From the NCBI RefSeq assembly GCF_054482525.1, contig NZ_CM137006.1: a stretch of DNA of 64,000 nucleotides, one strand, 5' to 3'. The notes under the pieces were generated by a model that was not told the DNA's origin, made no database searches, and saw only the letters and a list, made by a program, of their open reading frames with translations. The translations under genes and the position numbers were made by a program. Each line of letters begins with the position of its first letter. Within the stretch, counting starts at the first letter, position 1. Below are positions 31,921 to 33,534 of the stretch, in pieces.

Positions 31921-32301
31921 ATGATTCGCACGATGCTGCAGGGCAAACTCCACCGCGTGAAAGTGACTCATGCGGACCTGCACTATGAAGGTTCTTGCGC
32001 CATTGACCAGGATTTTCTTGACGCAGCTGGTATTCTCGAAAACGAAGCCATTGATATCTGGAATGTGACCAACGGCAAGCGTTTCTCCACCTATGCCATC
32101 GCGGCAGAACGCGGTTCGAGAATTATTTCCGTTAACGGTGCGGCGGCCCACTGCGCCAGCGTCGGCGATATTATCATCATCGCCAGCTTCGTTACCATGC
32201 CAGATGAAGAAGCTCGCACCTGGCGGCCCAACGTCGCCTATTTTGAAGGCGACAATGAAATGAAACGTACCGCGAAAGCGATTCCGGTACAGGTTGCCTG
32301 A
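31921..32301 (+). CDS. panD: Aspartate 1-decarboxylase proenzyme
   Basis: 126 aa; contains the pyruvoyl-forming G-S cleavage site in ...YEGSCAID. Confidence 0.96.
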
Positions 32302-32304
32302 TTG

Positions 32305-33534
32305 TTATCCCTGCGGCTGGTTACTCACCAGCCGCGACATCGTCTCCAGCGAATCCGTTCTTAAGATATAAAGTCGTTTTAGTAACAACGGATTATCCCC
32401 CGGTTTTACTTTGCCTTTCATGGTTGTCACCGCCAGGTGAAATCCGGCTTCTTTTGCTGCCTTCACGGCTTTGTCATTAAATCCGCCAAACGGATACGAA
32501 AGATACCAGACATGCGGATTAAATTGCGCCAGAGCGCGGCGTGAACGTGCAAAATCAAACAGAATATTGTGCTCACTACGGCTCAGTAATATGGGTCGGC
32601 GATAACCATCCACCCGATGCAAAAAATGGGTATGTGACTGGAAATCAAATACATCGCGAATTTCGTTAAGTTCAGAAACGCTCATAAATTGCAGCGATTT
32701 TGGGTCCCACTTCTGCGGGTGACGTTTGATGCGCGAGGTAACAATAAACGCCGTCGCCTTCATACCATATTGTTTCAACACAGGATACGCATAGCGGCTC
32801 ACCGACTTTAGGCCATCATCAAAGGTAATCACCACCGCTCGCGCAGGGAGATTGATCTTATTCTTCACGTAACCTTCCAGTTGCGCCATGCTCAGTGTCG
32901 CGTATCCCCTGTCGCGCAGCCAGGCCATCTGGTTATTGAAAGCGCGTACCGAGGTGGTCGTCGAAGTATGGCGAAAACGGGTGTTTTCTTCGTCGCGCAG
33001 AATATGGTGATAGGTTAGCACCGGCAGGCCATTATCGGGTTGGGCATCCAGCGCACTGATATAGGCCAGTCGATCGCCAATACGGACCTGATACCAGGTT
33101 TGATTTAACCTGTCTTTCAGTTTATGCAAAATTGGGTAGCGCAAATTGTCCGCCAGTACCCCAAACGGCGCACTGCCCGCACTCGGCGCGTTGTAGACCG
33201 GCGTATCTTTCCAGGTTATTAAGTTCTGATTACTCAGCGGCTTGTTGAGGTCACCCAAACCATCTTCAACTTTTTGTCGCCCCTGAACCGGCTCGAGATG
33301 CCCTTTATCGATAAACCCTTTACCAAAGCCAAAATTAAATGCGTAATAACTTGCGGCAGTGGGCTCCACGGCAATGATTTGTCCGGCCCGAATATTCCCC
33401 ACGGTCACCATCTTGTCGCCAATTTGCGCCCAGACCGCAGCATTTTCGATGGTTTGCATATAACGGGCAGGTAACGCGGCACTGACACTTGCGGTAAACA
33501 GCATCAGCAGGAGAATAACAGCTTGTTTGTACAT
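32305..33534 (-). CDS. yadE: Secreted polysaccharide deacetylase-like protein YadE (NodB-homology domain)
   Basis: 409 aa with signal peptide [19 protein letters not shown]; NodB-type motifs VVITFDDG and HTHFLHRV. Confidence 0.88.

Follow-up and report, generated by a model that had tools for sequence, protein, structure and literature searches.

Introduction

Rho-dependent transcripts of the class described by Dar and Sorek (2018) end just past stable, U-poor stem-loops, which block the exonucleases PNPase and RNase II. By energy, these stem-loops cannot be told apart from intrinsic terminators, and mixed or transitional cases between the two may exist (Dar and Sorek, 2018). At tail-to-tail gene pairs, a single hairpin in the spacer may mark both transcript ends, as for hpt and can, which end on opposite sides of one spacer hairpin in K-12 Term-seq data (Adams et al. 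2021, PMC7815308). Convergent neighbours may also form excludons, in which their transcripts overlap and whose defining regulatory outcome is mutually exclusive expression, with processing of the overlap by RNase III. ExcludonFinder reported 165 convergent excludons in MG1655, listed when seen in at least 50% of the MG1655 RNA-seq samples, and 'yadE-panD' is among them, the two genes being described as functionally related (Sanmartin et al. 2025, NAR 53:gkaf686, Table 1). The panD-yadE pair was thus already documented: the K-12 annotation shows its gap, published tables give the panD 3' end and a Rho-dependent region, and the excludon list contains the overlap.

Here we analysed this junction in a 64,000-nucleotide stretch of Escherichia coli DNA (contig NZ_CM137006.1, hereafter the window). 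The stop codons of panD and yadE are almost adjacent, and a conserved hairpin lies just beyond the panD stop, inside the yadE coding sequence. We consider this hairpin to be, with good probability, a 3' stem-loop that protects panD mRNA after termination by Rho, embedded in the coding sequence of the opposing gene.

Geometry and conservation of the panD-yadE junction

The panD coding sequence (aspartate 1-decarboxylase, 126 aa; b0131 in K-12) occupies 31921..32301 on the + strand and ends in TGA at 32299-32301. Facing it on the − strand, yadE (polysaccharide deacetylase family, 409 aa) occupies 32305..33534, its TAA being the reverse complement of 32305-32307, so that only the 3-bp spacer TTG (32302..32304) separates the two stops. 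Both coding sequences in the open reading frame list match the RefSeq annotation of PCN033, which is 100% identical in sequence, and in K-12 MG1655 the coordinates of yadE (145081..146310) and panD (146314..146694) leave the same 3-bp gap. A sequence-only reading of this DNA had reported convergent stops 3 bp apart, and the sequence, the open reading frames and both annotations confirm it.

The junction was found in 5424 of 5426 complete E. coli genomes, and yadE converges on panD in 55 of 80 species-representative Enterobacteriaceae genomes, a count that includes one species (L042) whose 1-bp gap is an estimate from tblastn coordinates. Exact gaps were available for 54 species; they measure 1-6 bp in 46 and 32-35 bp in the other 8. 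Across the same number of species YadE keeps its C-terminal peptide, SRL[V/I]SNQPQG followed by the stop. These comparisons indicate that the tail-to-tail arrangement is conserved and is no chance juxtaposition.

Among the ten convergent junctions of the window, the 3-bp gap is unusual: the nine others annotated there have gaps of 34-81 bp. At eight of these nine, with spacers of 34-70 bp, the spacer holds a perfect hairpin of at least 9 bp. Only two of the 16 loci in the window with such a perfect hairpin fall within a coding sequence, and one of them is at panD-yadE. It would appear that the 3'-end hairpin, placed in spacers of about 35-80 bp elsewhere, sits here within the last ten codons of yadE.

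A U-tract-less hairpin in the last codons of yadE

The sequence-only reading also held that no hairpin or terminator lies at the junction. Between the stops this is true, trivially so since just 3 bp are available there, but it does not hold a few nucleotides further on. Inverted-repeat search and minimum free energy (MFE) folding revealed, on the + strand at 32313..32335, a GC-rich stem of nine perfect base pairs, GCGGCTGGT / ACCAGCCGC, that closes a loop of 5 nt. Its arms lie at 32313-32321 and 32327-32335, the first beginning 12 nt past the panD stop, and the stem can be extended by a U32312·G32336 pair. The hairpin has a folding energy of -16.6 to -18.3 kcal/mol (z = -3.5 for the 121-nt region), and just 3.3% of random 60-nt windows reached -16.6 kcal/mol. 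It occupies yadE codons -10 to -2, the same 23 nt encoding the YadE residues S-R-L-V-S-N-Q-P-Q, and is therefore under a double constraint, from the protein and from the RNA structure.

With its 9-bp GC-rich stem, its short loop and a transcript 3' end a few nucleotides beyond, the structure resembles a canonical intrinsic terminator. It differs in its tail, GACAUCGU, which has 2 U in 8 nt, in receiving no call in a consensus terminator scan, and in the limitation of downstream transcription by Rho. A canonical intrinsic terminator was rejected on the ground that, despite the hairpin, a U-rich tract is absent next to the stem on both strands. A bidirectional intrinsic terminator was likewise rejected: the hairpin is upstream of the yadE stop, lacks flanking A/U tracts and shows a pairing preference for one strand. 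Nor is the structure a REP element, as the 101-nt segment is single-copy (median of one match per genome) and lies within a coding sequence. An Rfam 15 scan of 31600-33000 at E <= 1 returned two chance-level matches (E 0.11 and 0.85), with scores far under gathering.

The panD mRNA ends just past the hairpin, and Rho limits read-through

The sequence-only reading had proposed Term-seq mapping around the junction and predicted that transcripts terminate within the opposing gene. Published K-12 Term-seq data bear this out on the panD side. The dominant panD 3' end falls at K-12 146275/146276 in all three growth conditions, with average reads of 125,366 (LB, OD 0.4), 41,034 (LB, OD 2.0) and 68,010 (M63), and it is classed as primary and antisense to yadE (Adams et al. 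2021, PMC7815308, Supplementary file 1). We checked the K-12 Term-seq coordinates against the K-12 annotation and transferred them to the window. The transcript data come from K-12, another strain, whose 61-nt string here differs from the window by one synonymous change. The steady-state panD 3' end thus lies at 32339..32340 (+ strand), 4-5 nt past the stem, 39 nt past the panD stop and 36 nt into the yadE coding sequence. The mature panD 3' UTR is therefore antisense to the end of yadE over 36 nt (32305..32340), which is the minimal obligatory overlap. The supplements of TERMITe mention neither panD nor yadE.

Some panD transcription goes beyond this end, and Rho halts it within about 0.5 kb. 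A Rho-dependent region was reported at K-12 145798(-), corresponding to about 32817, with a Rho score of 7.18 (p = 8e-27); reads upstream and downstream of this point numbered 214 and 27 without bicyclomycin and 412 and 373 with it (PMC7815308, Supplementary file 2). These are the DirectRNA-seq values of the published table, not recomputed from raw reads. We therefore drew, antisense to yadE, a zone in which Rho ends panD read-through, at 32341..32817 (+ strand), with approximate boundaries, since the Rho score was computed over 800-nt windows and places the termination site only roughly. By base composition, C exceeds G at 32321-32398 (C/G 1.62) and at 32761-32878 (C/G 1.7-1.85).

The locus thus shares with the Dar and Sorek class a stable, GC-rich stem-loop lacking a U-rich tract and directly preceding a precise, mapped 3' end, read-through that in K-12 rises when Rho is inhibited, and a mild C>G bias after the structure. 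It differs in that the stem-loops of the class lie in untranslated spacer, whereas that of panD lies in the coding sequence of a convergent gene and so falls under the constraint of the YadE protein as well; trimming at panD would be the step that we infer rather than observe.

Steady-state ends look alike whether polymerase terminates at a hairpin or exonucleases trim back to it. We therefore considered that the hairpin may itself act as an intrinsic terminator of a non-canonical kind that lacks a U tract, perhaps with help from NusA or NusG; most panD transcription would then physically end at 32339/32340, and Rho would clear a minor fraction of read-through. In its favor, reads pile up at a sharp, well-populated 3' end (averages of 41,000-125,000) 4-5 nt past the stem, whose energy of about -17 to -18 kcal/mol matches those of intrinsic terminators, and the mixed cases allowed for by Dar and Sorek (2018) would accommodate it. 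However, the 8 nt past the stem hold 2 U, the consensus scan makes no call there, and the jump of downstream reads from 27 to 373 under bicyclomycin points to a substantial polymerase flux beyond the hairpin. Hairpins without U tracts support poor termination by E. coli RNA polymerase in vitro, which also speaks against this explanation. We regard it as unlikely, and favor a protective stem-loop behind which transcription is ended by Rho.

Antisense transcription over both genes

The sequence-only reading had further suggested that the panD and yadE transcripts overlap and are mutually antisense. The excludon listing, the panD 3' end within yadE and antisense reads on both genes all agree with this. 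In total RNA-seq, yadE had 10.9 RPM antisense and 31.1 RPM sense, and panD had 5.3 RPM antisense and 127.6 RPM sense. As in the convergent excludons, where yadE-panD is explicitly listed, the transcripts of the two neighbours overlap; the defining regulatory outcome would be putative for this pair, and RNA-seq of rnc mutants showed no effect on panD or yadE sense RNA.

A regulatory role for the tight overlap, with each gene repressing the other because polymerases interfere head-on or because RNase III cuts the paired 3' ends, appeared quite improbable to us. It would fit the catalogue entry as a functionally related pair, the antisense reads over both genes and the moderate, gene-wide reads of p19-captured double-stranded RNA from yadE (137-283 RPM across four Illumina data sets). 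In addition, the only local junctions listed as excludons are the two convergent ones without a spacer hairpin, yadE-panD and rpnC-panC. On the other hand, yadE sense RNA fell from 31.1 RPM to 22.8 and 24.4 RPM in the rnc-14 and rnc-38 mutants, and panD sense RNA likewise did not rise. Among the p19 duplexes listed, the sole one in yadE lies near its 5' end (K-12 145120-145143), and none is at the junction. Species that lost yadE also keep the hairpin together with the 3' context of panD (see below). Finally, panD is transcribed about 13-fold more densely than yadE, so that any effect of interference would be one-sided.

An extension of this proposal, that the 3-bp arrangement is kept since it couples the two genes in a working excludon, linking CoA precursor synthesis with envelope polysaccharide modification, seems very unlikely; the documented overlap is the one specific point in its favor. 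YadE is a putative secreted polysaccharide deacetylase. If the coupling were real, strong panD transcription, for beta-alanine and pantothenate supply, would keep yadE low through antisense RNA and head-on polymerases, and induced yadE, which has no conserved terminator, would traverse panD and dampen it. Because rpnC and yadE share a strand, we also considered a noncontiguous operon, yadE-(panD)-rpnC; it is absent from the three noncontiguous operons reported by ExcludonFinder and was set aside.

No yadE 3' end was detected in K-12 Term-seq (PMC7815308). On the − strand, beyond the yadE stop and opposite the last panD codons, the consensus scan flagged 32282-32269, which folding widened to a terminator-like hairpin, GUACCG...CGGUAC (32267-32290), with a U-rich tail (feature 32254..32290). 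As a conserved yadE terminator within panD it was rejected: although present in this strain, it is fully paired in just 9 of the 55 species with adjacent yadE and in 3 of the 25 without, and it probably arises incidentally from panD codons. A second antisense hairpin at 32233-32253 was dismissed as a conserved element on similar counts (fully paired in 11 of 55 species with yadE and 2 of 25 without), and it too would follow from the panD codons. We also set aside as chance a + strand terminator-like site at 32222-32238 followed by TATTTTGA, which lies 60 nt before the panD stop in the conserved VAYFEG codons and has no Term-seq end.

Selection on the hairpin acts beyond the YadE protein

The stem is present in 54 species of Enterobacteriaceae and is fully paired on the panD-sense strand in 50 of them. 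Counted over all stem positions in these species, 98.9% of cells are paired on the + strand vs 93.4% on the − strand. Compensatory changes were found at only two of the nine stem pairs: pair 8 occurs as GC, GU or AU (9, 15 and 15 distinct rows, respectively), and in Kluyvera a UA replaces the CG of pair 5. The significance from shuffle controls is overstated because the species are related.

Part of the nucleotide conservation follows from the highly conserved YadE C-terminal peptide, and it might be argued that this peptide and codon bias alone account for the inverted repeat, with no role as RNA, the Term-seq end then reflecting exonuclease stalling. Several observations would fit: the SRL[V/I]SNQPQG peptide is nearly invariant, CTG, CAG and CCG are frequent E. 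coli codons, and the covariation is confined to two stem pairs. The low synonymous entropy of the stem codons (0.22 bits, vs 1.13 bits for a set of 80 further conserved codons of yadE; p = 1.9e-4) could also come partly from codon bias, CCG and CTG being preferred codons. However, codon bias does not explain the arginine codon CGG in the stem, since CGG is rare; it is invariant in all 53-54 species compared, whereas other conserved arginine codons vary freely (0.72-2.34 bits). Where valine is replaced by isoleucine (GTG to ATC), the partner changes from AAC to AAT, or the path runs via G·U, so that pairing on the + strand is kept, and an A·C state at this pair was seen on that strand in 0 of 54 species.

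The hairpin also persists where yadE does not. Intestinirhabdus alba (L041) and a Pluralibacter metagenome-assembled genome (L011) have no yadE coding sequence, yet both retain an arm-matched hairpin between panD and yadI, with arms GCGGCCGAT..ATCGGCCGC and GCGGCTGGC..GCCAGCCGC. More widely, a hairpin stands straight after panD in all 80 species whatever lies downstream, starting 4-31 nt after the stop, with energies of -10.4 kcal/mol or lower and mostly about -15 to -20 kcal/mol. Loss of yadE thus leaves the hairpin and the 3' context of panD in place, and the conserved element is independent of its partner gene. Against these data, a mere by-product of the peptide is a remote prospect, and by codon-level comparison the hairpin is conserved beyond the requirements of the protein.

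Watson-Crick covariation is strand-neutral, and in E. coli the yadE-sense hairpin, at -20.5 kcal/mol with additional flanking pairs, is at least as stable as that of panD. The hairpin might then act in yadE mRNA or in DNA, for example by slowing ribosomes before the stop or by protecting a processed yadE 3' end. The distribution of G·U pairs speaks against this. In 21 of 54 species, one or more G·U pairs of the panD-sense strand correspond to A·C or C·A mismatches on the yadE-sense strand; in all, 26 cells count against yadE-sense pairing and 5 against the opposite, and the panD-sense version is the more stable in 48 of 54 species. This pattern indicates, as far as sequence comparison can tell, selection on the panD-sense RNA strand only. 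Moreover, Term-seq detected no yadE 3' end, and since the hairpin precedes the yadE stop, it would be opened by translating ribosomes and could not protect a full-length yadE 3' end. A function in yadE mRNA or in DNA is accordingly held to be most improbable.

The element resembles the shared spacer hairpins of convergent pairs in that a single hairpin marks a tail-to-tail junction, and in the Pluralibacter genome, where the same arm sequence lies in a 63-bp panD-yadI spacer, the likeness is closer. It differs from them in having no A/U tracts and in the one-strand G·U selection; being upstream of the yadE stop, the hairpin can serve panD alone.

Proposed end of the panD transcript and its implications

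In the reading that we prefer, that of a protective stem-loop on a Rho-terminated mRNA, panD would be transcribed and translated through to the UGA at 32299-32301, and its RNA would fold into the 9-bp GC-rich, U-tract-less stem-loop at 32313-32335. RNA polymerase would mostly proceed beyond the stem-loop, and Rho would load onto the untranslated, C-rich RNA and end transcription at scattered sites over the next 0.5 kb or so, antisense to yadE. Exonucleases acting 3' to 5' would then shorten the RNA as far as the stem-loop, and the stable panD mRNA so formed would end at 32339/32340. Observed are the position of the panD 3' end, the sensitivity to bicyclomycin and the hairpin with its conservation and strand-specific pairing, whereas trimming by exonucleases, the site of Rho loading and any influence on yadE are inferred. 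Nascent panD read-through would be antisense to far more of yadE than the 36 nt of the mature 3' UTR, and any yadE transcript would likewise have to enter panD, with whatever effect on yadE this may have. Since a strong, conserved hairpin defines the panD 3' end, this is not unstructured read-through. To call the junction one with 'no terminator' is thus misleading, as the conserved hairpin inside yadE marks where the panD mRNA ends.

The practical stakes are small, and as a biological finding the panD-yadE junction is an ordinary one. What this analysis adds is a well-controlled case of a 3'-end stem-loop encoded within the coding sequence of a neighboring gene, with selection at synonymous sites, a G·U pattern that names the selected RNA strand, and a hairpin that survives the loss of its host gene. 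For annotation, the absence of an intergenic terminator does not equal the absence of a 3'-end element. For strain engineering, recoding or deleting the 3' end of yadE, or inserting a cassette there, would likely destabilize panD mRNA.

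Convergent arrangement of panD and yadE

In the RefSeq annotation, the locus reads panC, a 77-aa hypothetical ORF, rpnC, panD, yadE, yadI, yadH, yadG. The panD gene (aspartate 1-decarboxylase; 31921-32301, + strand) ends in TGA at 32299-32301, and yadE (polysaccharide deacetylase family, 409 aa; 32305-33534, - strand) converges on it with a TAA stop that is the reverse complement of 32305-32307. A sequence-only reading had placed these convergent stops 3 bp apart, which was borne out by the window sequence and its ORFs; the spacer consists of the three bases TTG (32302-32304), and K-12 MG1655 has the identical gap (yadE 145081..146310, panD 146314..146694). 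Among the ten convergent junctions annotated in the whole window, with gaps of 34, 42, 70, 37, 46, 40, 3, 81, 34 and 46 bp, the panD-yadE gap is an outlier and is locally unusual.

The region 31600-33700 was 100% identical to the E. coli PCN033 chromosome and was found in 5424 of 5426 complete E. coli genomes, with 95-100% identity save for 20 matching records. Searches with 31600-33700 and 32270-32370 also matched 61 E. coli records that carry a plasmid label (e.g., NZ_LS992186.1, 164 kb). The label stands although panD-yadE is a core chromosomal locus; mis-assigned contigs, pieces of chromosome or large chromid-like replicons may account for these records.

A hairpin embedded in the end of yadE

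We scanned all 64 kb for perfect stems of at least 9 bp with loops of 3-8 and found 16 loci, 14 of them intergenic. Only two were inside coding sequence, one being an ATC-repeat in yacH and the other a hairpin at 32313-32335 in yadE. This embedded hairpin starts 12 nt beyond the panD stop, within yadE's last ten codons, and has perfectly complementary arms (GCGGCTGGT, 32313-32321; ACCAGCCGC, 32327-32335) around a 5-nt loop. In panD-sense RNA it folds at approximately -17 to -18 kcal/mol, and the surrounding 121-nt region folds better than 200 of 200 shuffles (z = -3.5). Eight of the 14 intergenic hairpins occupy spacers of the window's other convergent junctions, so the panD-yadE junction does have the hairpin usual for such sites, displaced into yadE. 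The sequence contains no U tract after the embedded hairpin on either strand, a consensus terminator scan did not call it, and an Rfam search of its region gave nothing above chance level. A canonical intrinsic terminator was rejected because the U tract is missing.

Of the window's ten convergent junctions, eight have a hairpin-bearing spacer (erpA-yadS, fhuB-hemL, hpt-can, cueO-gcd, yacL-speD, lpdA-yacH, ampE-aroP and guaC-hofC), each with one perfect stem of at least 9 bp in a spacer of 34-70 bp; these hairpins start at 1502, 4897, 36616, 39786, 43678, 49068, 58292 and 63939. The hpt and can ends flank their shared hairpin on opposite sides in K-12 Term-seq, and the eight spacer hairpins are a tidy local example of bidirectional 3' structures shared by neighbouring genes.

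The panD 3' end and Rho

Term-seq of K-12 placed the panD 3' end at 146275(-) in LB at OD 0.4 (average 125,366 reads) and OD 2.0 (41,034 reads), and at 146276(-) in M63 (68,010 reads); the end was classed as primary for panD and antisense to yadE (Adams et al. 2021, PMC7815308). With coordinates verified, it is 39 nt beyond the panD stop and transfers to window 32340/32339, 4-5 nt 3' of the stem and 36 nt into the yadE coding sequence. The earlier proposal that the transcripts run into the opposing gene thus holds for panD, and the published excludon classification agrees. Its companion claim, that there is no terminator, misses the embedded hairpin, the element that defines the panD 3' end.

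A Rho termination region antisense to yadE was reported at K-12 145798(-), with a Rho score of 7.18 (p = 8e-27) and 214 upstream and 27 downstream reads without bicyclomycin, as compared to 412 and 373 with the drug (Adams et al. 2021, PMC7815308). This position corresponds to approximately window 32817. On the + strand, C exceeds G directly 3' of the hairpin (32321-32398, C/G 1.62) and once more at 32761-32878. In the Rho-dependent class described by Dar & Sorek 2018, diffuse downstream termination is followed by exonucleolytic trimming to a stable, U-poor stem-loop. The panD element matches this class in its Term-seq end and Rho pattern, and it has three defining features of the class apart from the trimming. 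The embedded hairpin is probably the stem-loop at the 3' end of a panD mRNA terminated by Rho, located in the yadE coding sequence and doubly constrained. Rho would terminate panD transcription diffusely downstream of the stem-loop, and exonucleases would then trim the ends back to it. That the hairpin itself terminates part of panD transcription is compatible with this reading and seems unlikely.

Conservation across Enterobacteriaceae

One genome per species was scanned, yielding 80 Enterobacteriaceae loci whose panD genes are closely related. In every one of the 80 species, regardless of downstream content, a hairpin of -10.4 kcal/mol or lower starts 4-31 nt 3' of the panD stop. Most are near -15 to -20 kcal/mol and few have U-rich tails; only 3.3% of random 60-nt windows attain -16.6 kcal/mol. 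yadE converges on panD in 55 loci, including L042, where the 1-bp gap is an estimate only. Exact gaps in the other 54 are 1-6 bp (46 loci) or 32-35 bp (8 loci). The embedded hairpin is kept in all 54 alignable sequences. Two loci, L041 from Intestinirhabdus alba and L011 from a Pluralibacter MAG, are natural deletions of yadE: they run panD, hairpin, yadI, yadH, yadG, and their hairpins keep matching arms, GCGGCCGAT..ATCGGCCGC, which contain a compensatory U-A to C-G change, and GCGGCTGGC..GCCAGCCGC.

The wide-gap loci (L028, L029, L040, L044, L047, L050, L053 and L067) belong to Kluyvera, K. pneumoniae, a Raoultella and Enterobacter JUb54. An extra strong GC-rich hairpin fills the spacer in each (~2885-2920; -17 to -26 kcal/mol), beside the retained embedded hairpin. 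Two non-Watson-Crick positions (G·U or mismatch) occur in the embedded stem in five of these eight loci and rarely elsewhere, as would be expected if constraint relaxes where a spacer hairpin is present, although the sample is small and phylogenetically clustered.

Nucleotide conservation of the stem is due in part to the conserved YadE C-terminal peptide, SRL[V/I]SNQPQG. Its synonymous sites are likewise frozen: codon entropy averaged 0.22 bits over the five stem codons versus 1.13 bits over 80 other conserved codons within yadE's last 120 codons (Mann-Whitney p = 1.9e-4). The stem's rare Arg codon CGG was invariant, and six other conserved Arg codons had 0.72-2.34 bits. Two stem pairs changed in compensatory fashion: pair 8 is GC, GU and AU in 9, 15 and 15 distinct rows, respectively, and pair 5 changed from CG to UA in Kluyvera. 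Pairing held in 98.9% of cells on the panD-sense strand, where the stem was fully paired in 50 of 54 species; on the yadE-sense strand the figure was 93.4%, and 21 species had at least one mismatch. A G·U pair on either strand corresponds to A·C on its complement. The opposite intermediate, A·C at pair 8 on the panD strand, was never seen across the species compared. These pairing counts are good evidence that the structure is selected in panD-sense RNA, though not formal evidence, because they are phylogenetically non-independent.

On the yadE side, a terminator-like hairpin with a U-rich tail 3' of the yadE stop (32267-32290, - strand) is not conserved, being fully paired in only 9 of the 55 species where yadE is adjacent and 3 of the 25 where it is not. 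For a second antisense hairpin (32233-32253), the corresponding numbers were 11 of 55 and 2 of 25.

Transcript overlap and antisense RNA

The yadE-panD pair is among 165 convergent excludons (pairs with overlapping transcripts) of MG1655, and only it and rpnC-panC are listed in this part of the chromosome (ExcludonFinder, PMC12288877). Neither the yadE-panD spacer nor the rpnC-panC spacer contains a perfect hairpin of at least 9 bp. The Term-seq tables contain no yadE 3' end (Adams et al. 2021, PMC7815308). Wild-type sense and antisense RNA were 31.1 and 10.9 RPM for yadE and 127.6 and 5.3 RPM for panD, with 32-283 and 25-73 RPM, respectively, in p19 dsRNA-capture data (PMC7373196). The density of antisense RNA over panD points to read-through of a sizeable share of yadE transcripts into that gene.

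The sequence-only reading had suggested possible transcriptional interference or an antisense RNA effect from this overlap. Sense RNA of neither gene rose in the RNase III mutants rnc-14 or rnc-38, and among the duplexes listed there was no perfect RNase III duplex at the junction, the sole one in yadE being near its 5' end (PMC7373196). The rnc-mutant data give no support to interference, which we consider improbable. The yadE 5'-proximal duplex in the p19 data, perfect over 21 nt, spans window 33472-33495 (K-12 145120-145143), approximately 1.15 kb beyond the panD 3' end and past the Rho region. It could derive either from occasional panD read-through across all of yadE or from a separate antisense promoter in or beside yadE.

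The rpnC-panC neighbourhood

The panC/rpnC side is the second tight convergent spot of the locus (30319-30703; gap 81 bp), and its junction likewise lacks a perfect hairpin of at least 9 bp. In K-12, it has a strong Rho region at 147624(-) (Rho score 16.9), antisense to yadD/rpnC, and p19 captured an RNase III duplex precisely at the panC 3' end (147942-147965). The 77-aa ORF (30401-30634, - strand), extra in this strain between rpnC (30703-31647, - strand) and panC, appeared by eye to be a duplicated copy of the RpnC C-terminus (TLAQWFEEKG...SKGMSREDVAE...LPLxEIDKLIN). RpnC has a short tandem peptide repeat, KGIEKGIEKGMEKGMEKGIEKGIQQG (rpnC 3' part, 30703-30950), and the fragment has a different repeat, QEAYQEVRQEVRQEVRQE, in the equivalent place, which suggests that Rpn C-termini contain a slippage-prone repeat region. 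The fimbrial-like adhesin gene yadC (27308-28549, - strand) is a pseudogene without its N-terminus in the PCN033 annotation, and in this strain the yad fimbrial operon, which lies downstream of panB, seems to have partly decayed.

Significance

Literature or annotation already records the gene arrangement, the panD 3' end, its Rho dependence and the listing of the pair as an excludon; in function, the element falls into a well-described class (Dar & Sorek 2018). The evolutionary results are a modest addition: the double constraint on the hairpin, its strand-specific G·U pattern and its survival after loss of yadE.
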